Origin: Candidatus Borrarchaeum weybense | Lineage (GTDB): Archaea; Asgardarchaeota; Sifarchaeia; Borrarchaeales; Borrarchaeaceae | Assembly (NCBI GenBank): GCA_019057385.1 | Contig: JAHQJS010000004.1 | Location: forward strand, 320,001-384,000 | Length of the DNA: 64,000 nt | Direction: 5' to 3' | Shown here: in pieces, positions 18,011-26,228 of the stretch | How the letters are laid out: every line of letters starts with the position of its first letter | How positions within the stretch are numbered: the first letter of the stretch is position 1 | Position numbers and translations under genes: made by a program | Notes under the pieces: model-generated | Told to the model about the DNA's origin: nothing | Databases searched by the model: none | What the model saw: the letters and a program-made list of their open reading frames with translations, nothing else

Positions 18011-18940
18011 TTATATAGCACTTTCTGGTACGATCTTTTCAGCAAACTTTTTAGGATAAAATGCATCTAGATCTTTGTATTCTTGACCGATTCCAATAAA
18101 TACAATGGGCTTTTTCGTAACATGAGCAATAGAAATAGCAGCCCCTCCTTTTGCATCAGCATCAACTTTAGTCAGTATTGAAGCATCAATACCTACAGCC
18201 TCATTGAATTCGCGAGCTTGTTCGACGGCATCATTACCAGCAAGACTGTCTCCTACAAAGACTGTAATCACATTCGCGTCTTCGATTCGTTTAAGAACAC
18301 GAACGATCTTTTCCATCTCTCCCATAAGGTTCTTATTGGTTTGCATTCTCCCAGCAGTATCAATTAGAACAATATCTATGTTTTTTGCAATTGCATGACT
18401 AACAGCATCAAAGGCAACAGCAGCAGAATCCGAGCCATATTTGTGTTTGATTACTTTAACTCCAAGTTTGTTTGCATGAATTTCTATTTGCTCTATGCTT
18501 CCTGCACGGAAAGTATCCGATGCTGCAAGGACTACAGAAAAACCCTTTTTTTGGAATAGACTAGTAAGCTTGGCTAAAGTTGTTGTTTTTCCTGTACCAT
18601 TAACTCCTAAAAATACAATCGCTAAAGGTTGCCCCTGTTCTTTGCCTTTTTTTGCTAACTCAAAAAGATCTATACCCTCTACTTTAAGGATTTCTAGAAT
18701 TGTATTTCTTAAGGCACTATAGACGAATTTCTTTGTGCTCTTAAGACGACCTACCTTCTCACCAGTCAACTGTTGTTTCATAAGTTCTCCAATTTCAGCT
18801 GCCACGGAAAATGCAACGTCGTTTTGTATTAATATTATTTTCAAAGATTCAAGAACATCCTCTAACTGGTCTTCACTCAATGTCTTCGATGATATTTTTT
18901 CTGTAAAACCCTGAAGACCACTTCTTAGTTTTTCAAACAT
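18011..18940 (-). CDS. ftsY: SRP receptor FtsY (first 38 codons apparently supplied by the island)
   Basis: GVNGTGKTTT, DTFRAG, DTAGR, TKVDADAKGG, GIGQ; start MFEKL at 18940. Confidence 0.95.
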   Translation of the reverse strand: MFEKLRSGLQGFTEKISSKTLSEDQLEDVLESLKIILIQNDVAFSVAAEIGELMKQQLTGEKVGRLKSTKKFVYSALRNTILEILKVEGIDLFELAKKGKEQGQPLAIVFLGVNGTGKTTTLAKLTSLFQKKGFSVVLAASDTFRAGSIEQIEIHANKLGVKVIKHKYGSDSAAVAFDAVSHAIAKNIDIVLIDTAGRMQTNKNLMGEMEKIVRVLKRIEDANVITVFVGDSLAGNDAVEQAREFNEAVGIDASILTKVDADAKGGAAISIAHVTKKPIVFIGIGQEYKDLDAFYPKKFAEKIVPESAI

Positions 18941-19310: not shown

Positions 19311-19470
19311 ATTTCAGCTGCGACAGAAAGCGCGACATCGTTTTCGTGGGTATGACATTTTTCGTCCCTTGCGAGTCATCCGTCCCCTTCGATGAGGCGT
19401 CGGACCTCTCAGGTTCAGTCTCATGCACAAGAACGTGTCCCTCATGTTTTATGAGGAACATACCGCCTTG
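19311..19470 (-). ncRNA. Putative guide RNA 1: scaffold (19346-19436 core) plus 35-nt ftsY-matching spacer (19311-19345)
   Basis: Scaffold repeated at 20452-20546; spacer 28/35 identical to ftsY 18792-18826; own TATA box (TTTATATA, 19498-19505). Confidence 0.8.
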
Positions 19471-19541
19471 CAACTCATATATTCGCTTACAAAGACCTAT
19501 ATAAACACCACTCTTCATAACAAGGACTCCCAGTTCCATAC

Positions 19542-20354
19542 TTACATGTCCTCTTTCAGGTCATCAAGATAAAGGTTGACCATTAATAAGAGATGGTTTT
19601 TCAAAGAAGAAAAACCATAGGTTAGTGCTTCGTTGATTTTATCAAGGTCATTGCATTTTCGAATAAAGGTATAAAGTGCAAAAGGAGAGTATTGGCGCAG
19701 TTCTATCTCTCTTTTTAACGCGTTGAAATCTATCTCTTCTGATTCTGCTACATGATAACGTGAAAATGCAGTCCATCTAAATTTTCGAGAAATCATTGCA
19801 GACCATCTATCATAATTTTGTAGTAAAGAAAGCAGAGGAAAGTCTTTTTCATCTATAGTATAATTATGATGGTTCTTTGCGAGCTGATAGACTTCGTCAT
19901 TAATTATATCAACATCAGTATAAATTTTGCTTGGATGTCGATCAGTGCTTACAAAATCATGCAGGAGCATTGCTATAATTAACTTTTCCTGCACATCTGA
20001 GAGTTTTGGAAGTTTCTTACGTATGTTAATCTTTCTCGAAATATAGAGGGGTTTTTTCTTGAATTCACTCACAGAAGTCCAAAAGATTTGTCCCACCCCC
20101 TCACATGTATAACTCCCGACACTATCAATAGCTAGTGCTTTTTCAAGTTTATGTTCTGGAACGATGAACTCAACATTACCAAACCATGCCCTAAAGGTCA
20201 TTGGAGCACGTCTTTGTCCTACCGTTAATTTTCCGAATACCCTGGGACGACCATTTATAGTCATCGCACCAACATCGGTAACTCCAAAATGTCTACGCCT
20301 TGAAACGATAGGAGTTTTTGTATAACCAATCAATTTAAAGTATTTTTGTGACAT
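19542..20354 (-). CDS. Cas5-like RAMP fused to HD nuclease domain
   Basis: N-terminal beta-rich RAMP ending in G-loop VGSYTCEGVGQI; LLHDF..NHH..YDRWSA and C-terminal SLKNH. Confidence 0.7.
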   Translation of the reverse strand: MSQKYFKLIGYTKTPIVSRRRHFGVTDVGAMTINGRPRVFGKLTVGQRRAPMTFRAWFGNVEFIVPEHKLEKALAIDSVGSYTCEGVGQIFWTSVSEFKKKPLYISRKINIRKKLPKLSDVQEKLIIAMLLHDFVSTDRHPSKIYTDVDIINDEVYQLAKNHHNYTIDEKDFPLLSLLQNYDRWSAMISRKFRWTAFSRYHVAESEEIDFNALKREIELRQYSPFALYTFIRKCNDLDKINEALTYGFSSLKNHLLLMVNLYLDDLKEDM

Positions 20355-20404
20355 TTATTCCCCTCATTTGAGGTTTTACCTCCTCTTTAAACAAAAGAGA
20401 GGAG

Positions 20405-20570
20405 ATATAAACCTTGCCAAAGTAAACACGTTTGCAACTGTTGTTTGTAAAGTGGGTATGACATTTATCGTCCCTTGCGAGTCATCCATCCCCAATAATC
20501 GAGGCGTCGGACCTCTAAGTTGGTTCAGTCTCATGCACAAGAACGTATCACTCACATCAGTAGGTGATAG
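20405..20570 (-). ncRNA. Putative guide RNA 2: scaffold (20452-20546 core) plus spacer matching the cas7 promoter
   Basis: Second scaffold copy; 20405-20451 aligns to 21454-21501 (42/47 identities, one gap); followed by a CTCCTCT/AGAGGAG hairpin. Confidence 0.8.
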
Positions 20571-20608
20571 ACCGTTATGAGATGAGAAAAAAAGTTGAGA
20601 TAAATATG

Positions 20609-21418
20609 TCACACAACCACCTTCTCACCCTGTCCACTCATAAGATTCAAAGAAGTTCTCCAACCCTCGATATTACTTAGAGTTAGTGGAGTTTCAGTGG
20701 TTTCTTCGATAATTTTATAATTTCCTTCACTATCCTCTCCGATTCTTCGAATAGTTTCAACCTTCTGAAGAGCAATATTAAGGATCTTGACGCAACCATA
20801 ACCACTTGCCCGTCCTGCTCCAAGAATTTCTACGTAGAGCATTGCCTCTATAAGAAACTTGATTTCACCATCAGTTAAGTTAGTCACATCAATGTGAAAG
20901 GAAAAAAATCCGCTGAAATAACTCTCACGAAAGTCTTGGATAGGAATACCATCATAGGCAAGAGCTATCCTATTTTCGCTAGCGATGTGGACATTTTGAA
21001 CAGGCACTTCAGTTGTGTATTCCTTATGTTTAATCGAGACAATAGGATCTGCAGCGACAACAATAGAGGACTTTTCGCGGAAGGTGCCAAAGATTGTTCG
21101 GAGAATACAGGGAGGATCACATGTACCAAGCGCATGAAACCCTTTCGGAAGAACACTTTTACCATCTTTAAGCGCTGTTTTCTCAGAACTGTGACAGACT
21201 TCAATGTTGCAGTCTTGAGCAAGCTCCATACAGGCATGTCTTAGCATTCCTCGGATACCTTTAATGTAATAAAACTTAGTATTGAATGTCTTTGAACTGT
21301 TTGTGTAAGGAAGTTTCCCTAACAAGAGCATGCTAGAATTTTTCTGAATCGAGGCATTGATAGGCTTTGCTATGGGTGTAAAGGCATGAATAACTATCTG
21401 TTTTTTGATTTTTCTCAT
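20609..21418 (-). CDS. Cas7-group RAMP (Csm3/Csf2-like backbone subunit)
   Basis: TPI near N-terminus, KGIRGMLRH, Cys cluster ..C..PCILRTIFG, ENRI, C-terminal G-loop LGAGRASGYG. Confidence 0.82.
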   Translation of the reverse strand: MRKIKKQIVIHAFTPIAKPINASIQKNSSMLLLGKLPYTNSSKTFNTKFYYIKGIRGMLRHACMELAQDCNIEVCHSSEKTALKDGKSVLPKGFHALGTCDPPCILRTIFGTFREKSSIVVAADPIVSIKHKEYTTEVPVQNVHIASENRIALAYDGIPIQDFRESYFSGFFSFHIDVTNLTDGEIKFLIEAMLYVEILGAGRASGYGCVKILNIALQKVETIRRIGEDSEGNYKIIEETTETPLTLSNIEGWRTSLNLMSGQGEKVVV

Positions 21419-21452
21419 GTTTCCAACCTCAGATATATTTAGTACAAGTACC

Positions 21453-21501
21453 TATATAAACCTTGCTCAAAATAAACACTTTTCCAACTTTTGTTAGTAA
21501 A
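21453..21501 (-). promoter_or_regulatory. cas7 promoter (TATA/BRE region); predicted target of guide 2
   Basis: TTTATATA at 21453-21460, ~35 bp upstream of the cas7 ATG; same ACCTATATAAAC context as the guide-1 promoter. Confidence 0.75.
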
Positions 21502-21764
21502 ATGGGGATTAAATTGACTTCCATTTTAGAAATAAAGCATTTTTAACAGTTTTTAGATGAAAAACCATCGAATATTTAGTGCCTGCTTTATAAATAACAA
21601 AGTCAAGCAACAATTTACATCATCATCTCTTTAAAAGAATAAACATATGATTTAACAAAATTAAGCGATTACGAGAATTCACAAGGAATACATTAATGGT
21701 GTCAACTAAACTAAAAAATGTTCTTAAAAGAATAATTGTACCATTGATGGTTGCTAATAAATCA

Positions 21765-24700
21765 TTAGGGCAAAAGATCCTTAACTATAACTGGAGGACC
21801 TTTTTTCTGTGGTGTATAAATTCCCTCCATGTGTTGAAACCTTTCAAACATTAGAAGAAGAGCTTCTTTATCTGGAGCATAAATAAAGGGGACGAATCGC
21901 TTCTTTTCTAGCAAAAAATCCTTGAGTTGTAGTGCGCACTGCCTTATAGCATCCTTTACTGTCATATATTCATCCAGATAGTATATCTCTTGATTAAGTA
22001 TATCACCAACCAGTCTCTCAACTTTGTAGTGCCCGTTCCACGTTAAATGATAGAATCGTTCACGCTCTAATGTTTTACGTATCTTAAAATCGGCTTTTGT
22101 AAATTTACCATATATACATGCTAAGATGAAGGTGAACCTGAATAGGGGAAGAAACATCTCTCGGAAGTCAACGACGGTGCCAAGAAAGGATCGCCGTGTT
22201 TTCTTAAAATGCAATATCAGTTCATCGGGCACCCATGAGAACCCTACTTCAGCGAGTGCTTTTCGACAGTAAAAATTAAGATGGCGATAGACGGCATTGA
22301 GTGCCGCACTAAAGGGAGTTCGCGCCTTTGCTTCACCCAGAAGCACCACTGTGGCAATATAGCGATCGAGGGTACGACTAATGATCTCAAAGTAACTGCC
22401 TTGCAGCAAATGCTTGGGAACCTCCCAGGCAACGCTTTCCACTACCCCTTCAAGACCGCGAAGGTTGTCAATATTGCCCCGCCAATAGAGAAAAGTGTAC
22501 GCCACGCGATCCAGCAGTTGGGATAAGAATTCCTGTGCCTCCGCAGAAGATAATATCCCCTCTTTTTCAAACCAGAGAATTGCATTGGCGAGCCCCATAT
22601 TTTTACCCATCACCAGCAGCCTCGCTAATAACGTGCCTCGTTCCGTCCCTCTGAGTTGCTGGGCGGTGTGTTTCAGTTCATCAGCTAATTGTTGTTTCTC
22701 TGGTGTCAGTGTATGCTGTGCAAAGAATCTGCCTTCGGGCGAATTAATATCAATGAGTTTCTTGCCATAGTTCTTACGAACTAGTTGCGAAACTTCTCCA
22801 CCCTCGATGATGATGTGACAGATAGCACCGATTAAATATCGATGTGTTGTTTTCCCGTCCTTTAGTGCATGAGCAAATCGTTTTTTCTTAATATCAAGCC
22901 GTTCACCGCACTTGACACGAATGGTTCGTTTTGGTCGTCGAATGTAAACCTTTGTTTTTTTAACCCGCGGGACATAATTTCCGGGCTTGCCTAAAAGCAA
23001 ATCCAATCCTTTTAGCATCAAACCTCGGTTGCCTGGTTTCACCACCAAGTCACCTTTCATGGTCAAATAATAGCGGGAATTGCATTCGGGACAGACTGTG
23101 TATTCATTATAGCAGGATGGCAATTCCACCGTACCGCCGGAGTAGCAGAAGTAGCACGGAGTATCATCGAGTGTTTCTTGTATGGCACTAATTGTGCGCT
23201 TTTTTAACTCCCGCGCTTTCTGATGGTATTCGCAGGCACCCATCTTTGGTGCGGCATAGGATTTCCTTTCTTGCCTTCCAATTTTTGTGTTATACTTTTG
23301 ATTCAACACACAGATATGTGCACGTTTCGATCTGCGACGATCCTTCATAGAATTTATCCGAAAGAAGCCACATGAACCACAGGTGAGCCGCAGATGTTCA
23401 GGAATACTCATATTCGCGTCTGCCACATAGATTTTAGGGCGACCTCGTAACTGCCCTCGAGAGATAAATTGGATTTTTCCTTGGATTCCTAACTTCTTTG
23501 CATGTTTCACTACCGTAGTATGGTGAACTGGTCGATTATACTGTTTACGAACCTCTGACGTAATTTGTGCGTAAGAGATGACCTTATATTGATTAATAAT
23601 GTTATAAATTGCTTCTTGAAGTCCCGGATATGGTATCGGTCTGTACTTTGGATACCTGCGTCTCCTTCTGCCTTTGTTCCCTCTTTCAACTTCAGGCTCT
23701 TTGTATTCAGGATTTAGTTTTGTGGTAAGTTTTTTGGCAACCCTTGCCGCCCTCGGGTCACTGCGCCCCAGATAGTCATAACTTGCTTCTGCGATCCACG
23801 ACGCCGTCTTTCTATGTGCTTCTGCATCACCCGGTCGTATGTTTACCCGAGTTGCAGCTTTTGTGACCGAAGAACCCTGACTGAGTAACCATACGAAAGA
23901 GGCATATTGCTGGGCGGTATATCGTGTGGTGTTGCTCACTTCATGTATGCTTCGACCGATTAGTGTAATTACGTGCCGGGAGAATTCCCGTTCTGAGGAG
24001 CAATGATGTGTGGCAAAAAACTTCTTGATCCTTAAGGCGGTTTTAATCGGCAGTAAAAATTGGCTGGCCCAGCGTCCTTTGGCTGTTGCACTAAACTTTC
24101 CACCATTTCTTTTGATAAAACCTTCCTTGATAAGTGTGTGAAGGATTCCCTCTCTTTTTTTCTTCGGTTCATCCTGCTTAGGTCGAGCTAACAGTTTCTC
24201 TCTTAGTTGTTGTGTAAAGTCTTTCAACTGGTCGTGGGTGAATGGTGTCAACAGTAAGCGAAGCTCTCCGTTTTTGACCCCGCGTGTAGTGGTGTTCTTC
24301 TTGACCCACATGAAGAATTTTCTCGTTACACGTTTCAAGTCGAATGGGAGAGAGCCTTCGTGCGTTTCGCGCAATAAGGACAGTAAATGAAGTTCGTTAT
24401 TGAGCCGACAAAGCTCCTCTTCCTGGTTCATGAGTGCGTTATTCATTAGTTCGGACCAATTCTGTAGCAATGCTTTGTGTTGATGCCAGAAGTAATGTCT
24501 TTCAAGTTTGTGAAGTAATTGATTCGTGGATGCCGAGCCTCTAGCTATCAGGGTGAGTACAATATCTGCCAAAGAAGAACGTGCCTGGCTTGTTATACGA
24601 TGTTCTTTGACTATCAATTGTCCCTCGACGATTTGTATCTCCTTTTGCTTCAAAATTTCTTGATCGTCCCCCACGAAGATCAGATCAGCATAGCCCACCC

Positions 24701-25775
24701 GATGATGGCGCGGTCGTGCCGCCCTGCCACTCAATTGTATCAACAGGTGAGGGTTGAACATCCCGGCATCGGCAATTATCACCCGTTTGATCGGAAAGTC
24801 CACCCCCTCTCCGTATTGAATCGTTGACAGAAAAACCTGAAATTCACCCTTCTTAAGCCGTCTCATAGCTTCTTGTTGTTCCTCTTTACTGAGCCCGGCG
24901 TGACTGTAGCCCACGGTGAGATCGAGTCCACAACTCTTAAGAAAGGACTGCAACTCTATAGCTCGTTGTTCAACCTGATTTCGTGTGTAGCAAAAGATGT
25001 GCACGATTTTAGTCCCCTGATCATCACCATACGAGCGTTGTTCAAAGGTCTTTTTGATCAAGCGAGCGAACAGAAAGCGTTTTTTTCGTTCAATCTGCTC
25101 TATGGTGCTGCCTGAAACCCCACAAGATGACACAATAAGCTTCGACTGCCGTTCGTTGGTATGGATAAGTTGAGCGTCAAGCCAACTTACCAGTTCCTCG
25201 GCATTCCCCAGAGTAGCCGAGAGATAGATGATATGCGGGCGAGGGCGTAACCAAGATCTTGCATTGACGATTGCAGTTTCTAGGCGAGCACCCCGCCCTT
25301 TGTTGCCCAGATTGTGCAGTTCATCGACCACAATCAATCCTATCTTGTCTAAAAACGGATACTCGAAATGCTTAACTAGCAGTCCATTGAAGGATTCGTA
25401 GGTGCTGATGAGGATATCCGCCGTTTCAAGCTCTTCAGGAGACGAACGGTCATCTCCGCTGACTTTGAGGATGGTACAGGCGTCGTGATACCACTCTTTG
25501 AACTTGTCATACATCTGATCGATCAGCCGTTTGGTCGGCTCAAGAATTACACAGCGCATCCCTTTTCCAAGCACGCGGGTAGACACTATTTGGGATATCA
25601 AGGTTTTTCCCGAAGCGGTAGGAGTGTACAACACCTTGTCCTGCCTTTGTTTACCAGAAAAACATGCCTCCCATTGAAAGTCGTAGAGGGCGTTAATGTC
25701 AGCCTGTTCCAACCGTTGACGTATGAATTCGTAGTTTAACCCTCTTTTCGTCATTGTAATGAACTGGCCTCTCAA
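21765..25775 (-). CDS. Ski2/Hel308-like SF2 helicase - HTH/Zn-finger linker - divergent Cas1 integrase fusion
   Basis: Helicase: PTASGKT, DELH, SAT, HAGL, QLSGRAAR. Cas1 (~21765-22950): LRGLEG, PFSAALNAVY, ILH, DFREMF. Start may be ATG 25754; TATA box at ~25810. Confidence 0.82.
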   Translation of the reverse strand: MRGQFITMTKRGLNYEFIRQRLEQADINALYDFQWEACFSGKQRQDKVLYTPTASGKTLISQIVSTRVLGKGMRCVILEPTKRLIDQMYDKFKEWYHDACTILKVSGDDRSSPEELETADILISTYESFNGLLVKHFEYPFLDKIGLIVVDELHNLGNKGRGARLETAIVNARSWLRPRPHIIYLSATLGNAEELVSWLDAQLIHTNERQSKLIVSSCGVSGSTIEQIERKKRFLFARLIKKTFEQRSYGDDQGTKIVHIFCYTRNQVEQRAIELQSFLKSCGLDLTVGYSHAGLSKEEQQEAMRRLKKGEFQVFLSTIQYGEGVDFPIKRVIIADAGMFNPHLLIQLSGRAARPRHHRVGYADLIFVGDDQEILKQKEIQIVEGQLIVKEHRITSQARSSLADIVLTLIARGSASTNQLLHKLERHYFWHQHKALLQNWSELMNNALMNQEEELCRLNNELHLLSLLRETHEGSLPFDLKRVTRKFFMWVKKNTTTRGVKNGELRLLLTPFTHDQLKDFTQQLREKLLARPKQDEPKKKREGILHTLIKEGFIKRNGGKFSATAKGRWASQFLLPIKTALRIKKFFATHHCSSEREFSRHVITLIGRSIHEVSNTTRYTAQQYASFVWLLSQGSSVTKAATRVNIRPGDAEAHRKTASWIAEASYDYLGRSDPRAARVAKKLTTKLNPEYKEPEVERGNKGRRRRRYPKYRPIPYPGLQEAIYNIINQYKVISYAQITSEVRKQYNRPVHHTTVVKHAKKLGIQGKIQFISRGQLRGRPKIYVADANMSIPEHLRLTCGSCGFFRINSMKDRRRSKRAHICVLNQKYNTKIGRQERKSYAAPKMGACEYHQKARELKKRTISAIQETLDDTPCYFCYSGGTVELPSCYNEYTVCPECNSRYYLTMKGDLVVKPGNRGLMLKGLDLLLGKPGNYVPRVKKTKVYIRRPKRTIRVKCGERLDIKKKRFAHALKDGKTTHRYLIGAICHIIIEGGEVSQLVRKNYGKKLIDINSPEGRFFAQHTLTPEKQQLADELKHTAQQLRGTERGTLLARLLVMGKNMGLANAILWFEKEGILSSAEAQEFLSQLLDRVAYTFLYWRGNIDNLRGLEGVVESVAWEVPKHLLQGSYFEIISRTLDRYIATVVLLGEAKARTPFSAALNAVYRHLNFYCRKALAEVGFSWVPDELILHFKKTRRSFLGTVVDFREMFLPLFRFTFILACIYGKFTKADFKIRKTLERERFYHLTWNGHYKVERLVGDILNQEIYYLDEYMTVKDAIRQCALQLKDFLLEKKRFVPFIYAPDKEALLLMFERFQHMEGIYTPQKKGPPVIVKDLLP

Positions 25776-26228
25776 TTCCTGCCTCTCATTTACAATGGTT
25801 GCAAATTTCTATATAAAGAGGGGAACTTTTGGATCGCTGGCTCGAAAAACTATGTCACTTGAACTCTTCACAAACCAAAGCGTTTTCCAAATCAAATGCT
25901 ATTAGACACAAATTAGAGATCGTTACTTTCATTAATTGAATCTACACGAACTCTCACTAAAAACAAAATTGTAGCATTTATGAAAGAATTTTCAAATGAT
26001 AGCATCATTTGATAACGGGAACGTAATCTAATTTCGGGACGGTAAAATTATCGCTAAAACTAGGAATATGAATCTTTGAAATCATATAGGAGAGGAACTT
26101 CAACTCACTAGAGAGGCATAAGGATATGTGAAATCATAATTAAACAAATATGTCCAGCAAAAAATTACTAAGCTTTATTAGTTGCCAAGCTAATATCTAG
26201 ACGATTAATATGGACGCGGTTCGTAAAA

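Follow-up and report, generated by a model that had tools for sequence, protein, structure and literature searches.

A scaffold-RNA tail in an Asgard ARAMP cassette matches its own cas7 promoter with mismatches in a sixth-base register

The window analysed here, 64,000 nucleotides (nt) of contig JAHQJS010000004.1 of Candidatus Borrarchaeum weybense (positions 320,001 to 384,000 of the forward strand), contains a cassette of cas-type genes interspersed with copies of a conserved non-coding element, the scaffold. Directly after the scaffold copy that lies downstream of cas7 comes a 47-nt tail, guide 2, that matches the promoter of this same cas7 gene, and the differences between the two copies fall mainly on every sixth base. 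Coordinates follow the numbering of the window, and all features of the cassette lie on its minus strand:

21765-25775, minus strand: gene for a helicase-Cas1 fusion of 1336 amino acids (Pfam DEAD, Helicase_C and Cas_Cas1; NCBIfam Hel308 and cas1; paralogues)
21502-21509, minus strand: 5′ flank of the guide 2 target, positions -1 to -8; -2 to -5 are identical to the last bases of the scaffold, -1 is mismatched
21454-21501, minus strand: guide 2 target, a segment of the cas7 promoter 36-83 nt upstream of the ATG, with no scaffold upstream (nhmmer)
20609-21418, minus strand: cas7, a Csm3-like RAMP of 269 amino acids (Pfam RAMPs, E = 4e-6; PADLOC Csm3, E = 3e-7; AlphaFold2 fold)
20452-20585, minus strand: scaffold copy 2, ~125-134 nt, non-coding and conserved (23-copy alignment)
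20405-20451, minus strand: guide 2 ('spacer 2' of a first-pass annotation of this DNA); position 1 is 20451, position 47 is 20405
20379-20404, minus strand: hairpin with a T-rich loop that closes the guide 2 unit (predicted stem)
19542-20354, minus strand: gene for a RAMP-HD protein ('cas5-HD' of the first-pass annotation) of 270 amino acids (AlphaFold2 model with a predicted local distance difference test score of 88.5; Foldseek; alignment)

This gene set fits ARAMP, an array-less type III derivative of Asgard archaea. In line with an Asgard host, a Pfam scan placed an archaeal EMG1/NEP1 gene near the cassette. No CRISPR array was found among the repeats of the 17-27 kb part of the window, no cas6 was recognisable in the locus, and no cas2 was evident there, a gene at which no search was aimed. 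The Cas1 domain of the locus is the one fused to the helicase, whose own part of the fusion is Hel308/Ski2-like and whose gene sits upstream of the guide 2 target.

Scaffold copy 2 ends in a hairpin of the form GAC-N7-GTC followed by the handle-like sequence ATACCCAC (20459..20452), which places 8 nt between the terminal hairpin and guide position 1. Cas6 cleavage of a CRISPR repeat leaves an 8-nt 5′ handle, and the mirrored spacing suggests that the 3′ end of the scaffold descends from such a repeat. The hairpin behind guide 2 is likely the 3′ end of the RNA or a terminator. Including an nhmmer search, 23 scaffold copies were found in the 4.18-Mb, 8-contig genome, and their alignment contains covarying hairpins. 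Thermodynamic folding of scaffold 2 with its tail gave no signal (z = 0.14 versus shuffles), so that the case for structure is carried by this covariation; no Rfam family matched within 18.9-26.3 kb of the window. Guide units are single scaffold-tail genes separated by protein genes and not a repeat-spacer array with Cas6 processing. The genome holds ~11 ARAMP-like cassettes, five of them with a helicase-Cas1 gene 33-89% identical to that of the window, and several scaffolds stand alone (C4:562979, C4:1263005 and C7:108012).

Guide 2 (20451..20405) matches 21501..21454. Over the ungapped positions 1-34 the two sequences differ at 6, 12, 18, 22 and 30; after position 34 the target has one extra base, and the final 13 nt are identical and include a TATA-like box, TTTATATA (21460..21453), located 35-42 nt before the cas7 ATG (21418). 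The first-pass annotation had proposed this very alignment, with the same five mismatches, and our recomputation reproduced it exactly, adding the 1-nt insertion/deletion (indel). Its observation that four of the five mismatches follow a sixth-base register was likewise reproduced: for at least four out of five to fall on the five 6n positions among 34 has p = 5e-4, a value for this locus alone, and the remaining phases show no enrichment. Guide 2 is oriented like the cas genes and would pair with the plus strand, i.e. the template strand of cas7. Elsewhere in the genome, tail 2 matches paralogous tails and paralogous cas7 promoters only.

The pair is not confined to the window. A promoter-matching second guide with the same mismatch register, which the first-pass annotation had suggested looking for in homologous loci, is present in ten paralogous loci (seven in this genome, two in Ca. 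Borrarchaeum yapensis and one on a sediment metagenome contig). The assignment to Ca. B. yapensis is based on a same-genus genome (G004) that is identical over 3.8 kb to a contig of a Ca. B. yapensis metagenome-assembled genome (MAG). All seven own-genome cassettes carry the scaffold between cas7 and the RAMP-HD gene, and in each the tail matches the cassette's own cas7 promoter; across the ten loci, this match lies 73-92 nt upstream of the ATG. The loci fall into four diverged lineages: this locus with C3a and C5a; C4_52, C4_75 and C4_90 with L086 and L092; C4_42; and L096.

Across the ten loci, register positions 6, 12, 18, 24 and 30 are mismatched in 8, 3, 8, 7 and 9 cases, respectively, and each of the non-register positions within 1-34 in at most four. 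Where the match extends further, positions 36 and 42 are mismatched as well. When one representative per lineage was pooled, mismatches occupied 12/20 register cells versus 6/116 other cells (Fisher p = 3e-8), with phase 0 as the only enriched phase. Within loci, guide and target are identical at 26-29 of the 29 non-register positions and typically at one or two of the five register positions. Between lineages, 8-15 of the 29 non-register positions differ, and at nearly all of these the guide equals the target in both of the loci compared. The bases at register positions also differ between lineages, on the guide side and on the target side, which implies repeated substitution there. C4_42 is an exception: its guide and target agree at every one of the five register positions, as if one copy had been renewed recently. 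These comparisons strongly support the view that base pairing constrains guide and target alike and leaves every sixth position free to vary. The phased mismatches would also cap perfect identity between the direct repeats flanking cas7 at 5 nt, which could shield the gene from deletion by recombination.

Codon wobble was considered as a source of the periodicity and rejected: odd multiples of 3 are unmismatched, except for position 9 in one subfamily.

If both copies were guides against a common third target, e.g. a virus, and alike only at the paired positions, their differences would likewise be phased. The promoter copy was considered as a second guide, and this was rejected: nhmmer at E <= 10 placed not even a degenerate scaffold upstream of it. 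No third genomic match of tail 2 was found in the 4.18-Mb genome either. Together, these two results imply that one side is the guide and the other the target, and we rate a shared third target as barely credible.

The match does not stop at guide position 1. Position -1 is mismatched in ten out of ten loci and thereby continues the 6-nt register, positions -2 to -5 are matched in nine out of ten, and the flank and the scaffold end change together between lineages (CCCA, TCCG or TCCA). According to the first-pass annotation, the mismatches fixed the 5′ end of the guide. This held for the register, but not for the end, as complementarity reaches 5 nt into the last 8 nt of the scaffold with position -1 unpaired. 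Complementarity between handle and flank is specific to the promoter targets; the host-gene-like targets of other tails (see below) show no consistent match. The Cas10 nuclease/cyclase of type III systems becomes active only if ~5 nt of the CRISPR RNA (crRNA) tag stay unpaired with the target flank (PMC11127173). By analogy, the match between handle and flank is possibly a 'self' mark, with which the complex could occupy its own promoter and leave the HD nuclease inactive.

The extension into the scaffold also bears on a simpler account, in which a promoter or operator was duplicated in front of two co-regulated genes and is bound by a protein, with the tail lying outside any functional RNA. 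In the subfamily of this locus, the TATA-like box of the tail is intact and lies ~50 nt before the RAMP-HD ATG, where it may still drive that gene, so that part of the 3′ identity may be promoter conservation; a third related promoter core precedes scaffold copy 1. The tail box is damaged in most lineages, with substitutions in sub2 (position 36), C4_42 (position 36), L096 (positions 42 and 48) and C5a (position 44), and the 35 nt upstream of the box stay matched. It follows from the substituted boxes that the tail is not conserved as a promoter, and we know of no promoter role for those 35 nt. Moreover, duplication cannot account for mismatches that, in four lineages, keep a 6-nt phase counted from the scaffold end. 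A mere duplicated promoter driving 'cas5-HD', the refutation that the first-pass annotation had envisaged, is thus largely excluded by the phase, the damaged boxes and the scaffold match, although it may hold in part for the present subfamily with its intact box; as an explanation of the whole it is very unlikely.

Returning to guide-target pairing, class 1 Cas7 filaments flip out every sixth guide base, leaving the guide to pair in 5-nt segments (PMC11127173). The pair described here displays this class 1 crRNA pattern of 5-nt blocks counted from the end of an 8-nt handle, as an evolutionary footprint only. A structure search with the AlphaFold model of the cas7 product returned 70 PDB matches at E <= 1e-3. 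The 50 matches listed are all Cas7-type backbone or RAMP subunits of class 1 effector complexes and span types IV-A, I-A, VII, III-E, I-C and III-A. By sequence the product is nearest to Csm3 and gRAMP; by fold, DNA-bound type IV-A and type I backbones match about as well as those of type III. We consider it highly probable that guide 2 pairs under Cas7 geometry, and the Cas7-bound guide function claimed in the first-pass annotation is well supported by phased mismatches in ten loci of four lineages together with the Cas7 fold.

The partner protein is less readily classified. The N-terminal half of the RAMP-HD protein adopts a fold like that of class 1 RAMP subunits in its model: nearly all top Foldseek hits are RAMP subunits, albeit weak (best E = 1.6e-3), and Cas5 is not singled out among them. 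In the C-terminal half, the alignment (and only the alignment) reveals an invariant HD-like set of histidines and aspartates, namely H132, D133, H140, H162, H163, D182, H254 and D265. The protein had no hit in Pfam, NCBIfam or PADLOC, and a search of its profile against PDB sequences gave nothing meaningful.

A contrast class is provided by scaffold copy 1, which is followed by a host gene:

19346-19475 and 19311-19345, minus strand: scaffold copy 1 and its tail (guide 1); the tail resembles ftsY 18826..18792
18792-18826: stretch resembling tail 1, within ftsY, which follows scaffold copy 1

Guide 1 is closed by an equivalent hairpin at the same distance as guide 2. Its relation to ftsY is an instance of a wider pattern, as the terminal tails of six cassettes (19311-19345 versus 18792-18826 in the window, and C3:91905, C4:423881, C4:1004424, C5:119712 and C3:65851) resemble same-strand DNA 125-1721 nt downstream in flanking host genes, with an identity of 24-28/35. 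The mismatches of these tails are mostly 3-periodic or scattered and their handles are unmatched; those between tail 1 and ftsY, at positions 1, 9, 12, 15, 16, 21 and 24, are 3-periodic and not 6-periodic. The absence of the 6-nt phase from the other tails means that the phase is not a general property of scaffold tails. The sequences of the host-gene-like tails fit homing guides or att-like duplications.

The promoters of the cassette are related to each other. Three similar cores (TTTATATAG plus downstream bases) at 19487-19505, 21442-21460 and 25799-25817 precede scaffold copy 1, cas7 and the helicase-Cas1 gene, respectively. The core in front of scaffold copy 1 resembles the cas7 promoter from the TATA-like box onward and not upstream of it, which is the half complementary to that covered by tail 2.

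The proposal that best accommodates the phased pair is self-repression of cas7 at the DNA level. Guide 2 would be the guide segment at the 3′ end of a structured scaffold RNA that is not of CRISPR type and is loaded on the Cas7 filament of the ARAMP cassette, probably with the RAMP-HD protein as a cap. As the filament flips out one guide base in six, guide 2 would pair in 5-nt blocks with the template strand of its own cas7 promoter, from ~5 nt before position 1 through the B recognition element (BRE)/TATA region. Because it has the sense of the cas genes, the guide has just two possible partners, the template DNA strand and an antisense RNA; and because the match always reaches the TATA-like box, a bound complex would occlude TBP and TFB, and with them block RNA polymerase. 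The output of Cas7, and probably of the co-transcribed guide too, would thereby be held down by negative feedback, a loop that would be closed by transcription of the scaffold, directly downstream of cas7, from what may be the same promoter. Pairing of scaffold positions -2 to -5 with the target flank would mark the site as 'self', perhaps preventing the HD nuclease from acting. The strand and the position of the target are consistent with DNA binding and self-repression; that the RNA is made and loaded, that its partner is DNA and not RNA, and that repression proceeds without cleavage is what we infer. On balance, we give DNA-level self-repression of cas7 a little better than an even chance.

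Several points weigh against this proposal. Csm3-like and type III complexes normally bind RNA, not double-stranded DNA, and no large subunit or protospacer-adjacent motif reader able to open DNA is visible in the locus. Binding could also serve a purpose other than repression. The 1-nt indel after position 34 breaks the register in the subfamily of this locus, and the last 13 nt of the match may be conserved here simply as the BRE/TATA of two promoters. All ten loci belong to a single genus-level clade, and as their lineages have a common ancestor, the p-values given above overstate independence. Finally, four related loci keep a tail-2-like sequence without a phased promoter match: L083, L087 and C4:1003335 of this genome have no promoter match, and that of L085 is decayed and unphased (13/34 mismatches).

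An alternative partner would be an antisense RNA across the cas7 promoter, bound or cut in type III fashion. The nearest sequence relatives of the cas7 product are Csm3 and gRAMP, tag:anti-tag logic belongs to RNA targets, the TATA-like box has near-symmetry, and the plus strand carries an AT-rich box at ~21433-21440. No plus-strand gene or conserved promoter is evident, however, and a transcript starting at one or the other box would span no more than part of the 52-nt match. Given also that, by fold, the cas7 product is about as close to DNA-bound type IV-A and type I backbones as to those of type III, we consider an RNA partner improbable.

Self-repression is not the only use to which pairing with promoter DNA could be put. 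The same Cas7-type pairing might mark the DNA of the element itself for the helicase-Cas1 protein, for donor or self recognition, target immunity or copy control, with guide 1 marking a chromosomal site, like the donor and target loops of an IS110 bridge RNA. The helicase-Cas1 gene accompanies most, albeit not all, loci that retain the guide/promoter pair, lying directly upstream, and it was found in none of the four loci that have lost the phased match (L083, L087, L085 and C4:1003335) within the upstream sequence available. The resemblance of six terminal tails to flanking same-strand DNA would accord with chromosomal marks, and in C4_52, which is helicase-less, similarity to a paralogue stops only ~40 nt upstream of the target. 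That same locus, however, has a phased pair without helicase-Cas1; furthermore, the target is internal to the locus and not at its end, it always covers the cas7 TATA-like box, which regulation explains directly, and no integration chemistry is known for this Cas1. Overall, a mark on the element's own DNA appears unlikely, if less so than an antisense RNA partner. The RAMP-HD gene of C4_52 (C4:523282-524033) was recovered as two overlapping tblastn pieces and is maybe frameshifted; the guide/promoter pair of this locus is still phased.

In a broader conjecture, ARAMP would be a programmable, array-less, RNA-guided DNA binder: a type III-derived Cas7/RAMP-HD filament with ~125-nt scaffold RNAs in place of CRISPR repeats, a 'self' guide on its own cas7 promoter recognised by tag:anti-tag pairing, 'non-self' guides on a neighbouring chromosomal gene, and a helicase-Cas1 protein that reads both marks to control or direct its own integration. 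We regard this as speculative and unlikely.

Other observations concern the surroundings of the pair. A small hairpin at 21510-21522, just upstream of the target and after a T-rich run, covaries among paralogues (GGAA/TTCC, GAAG/CTTC and GGAG/CTCC); it could act as terminator of the helicase-Cas1 gene or else belong to the site that is recognised. In some loci, the interval from cas7 to the RAMP-HD gene contains two or three consecutive scaffold-tail units, spaced at a period of 150-270 nt (L096 5650-6250, equivalent to G004:C9, and C5:119441-119845 of this genome), and in such mini-arrays only the last unit matches the promoter. Scaffold copies also occur in other Asgard MAGs (L052-L080; Ca. 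Sifarchaeum, Ca. Borrarchaeota and Promethearchaeota), most of them without a cas7 or RAMP-HD gene within the 4-8 kb examined. Such copies could represent orphan or trans-acting scaffold RNAs; alternatively, the protein queries were perhaps too distant. In distant ARAMP loci of other Asgard families (cas7 35-45% identical), cas7 and RAMP-HD genes are adjacent, and no scaffold or promoter match was found with the queries used here.

ARAMP, like its haloarchaeal cousin HRAMP, is classed among CRISPR derivatives in which the array has been lost, and their mechanism is described as enigmatic. A guide/target pair that tolerates differences only at every sixth base is about the strongest evidence that sequence can provide, and it indicates that ARAMP is still RNA-guided, with the guide on a Cas7 filament and its position 1 located. 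New in this case would be a guide-RNA autoregulator in a system with previously unrecognised RNA guidance. For experimenters, the analysis offers an RNA, a register, a native target and a likely rule for telling self from non-self. It further suggests a compact feedback circuit, whose guide arises downstream of the very promoter to which it binds, and points to possible DNA binding by a Cas7 effector that lacks a large subunit. Should the links to helicase-Cas1 and to the guides matching host genes prove true, they would represent a new class of RNA-guided integration; the two-mark reading of helicase-Cas1, if true, would make the system a Cas1-based counterpart of CRISPR-associated transposons or bridge-RNA recombinases.

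The locus agrees with ARAMP, as introduced by Makarova et al. 2020 (CRISPR J 3:156) and summarised in reviews (PMC8730458, PMC12669027), in that its host is an Asgard archaeon, its Cas7-like RAMP is diverged, its Cas1 is distinct and an array is lacking; it also has a candidate for the second RAMP/nuclease protein. These reviews term the mechanism enigmatic and make no mention of an RNA, and the nucleases named are mostly HNH and PD-(D/E)xK (PMC12669027); the cassette described here differs in having a putative scaffold RNA as companion, with guide tails of which one is self-targeting. Full-text literature searches, whose coverage did not extend to the original ARAMP paper, returned no report of an ARAMP RNA, guide or autoregulation.

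The handle invites comparison with type III tag:anti-tag discrimination. In both cases the last bases of the handle are complementary to the target flank, here at -2 to -5 and not at -1. Unlike in type III, there is no Cas10; the candidate nuclease is the HD domain on a small RAMP protein, and the partner is probably DNA.

Type IV-A systems with DinG likewise employ a type III-related Cas7 backbone, bind DNA (as is proposed here), work with a helicase and interfere without shredding their target. Type IV-A silences transcription rather than cutting, and the DNA-bound type IV-A structures 8s37 and 8rc2 are among the best fold matches of the cas7 product. Type IV differs in possessing arrays, Cas6, Csf1 and plasmid targets, whereas the present locus has a Hel308-like helicase fused to Cas1 and a target in its own promoter.

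The closest relatives in function are the crRNA-like autoregulators, which comprise CreR/CreA (type I-B), mini-arrays (types I-B, I-E, I-F1 and V-A) and tracr-L (type II-A); their guides lie between degenerate CRISPR repeats and match cas promoters over ~10-14 nt, and a survey of them lists no such targets for type III (bioRxiv 10.1101/2023.03.03.530964). Guide 2 departs from this scheme in that no CRISPR repeat or array is involved: a ~125-nt scaffold takes their place, the match extends over ~47-52 nt save for the flipped positions, and the system is a type III derivative. What it shares with these autoregulators is that the guide is encoded in the locus whose own effector promoter it matches, here over the cas7 TATA-like box, and that the predicted outcome is binding without cutting and negative feedback.

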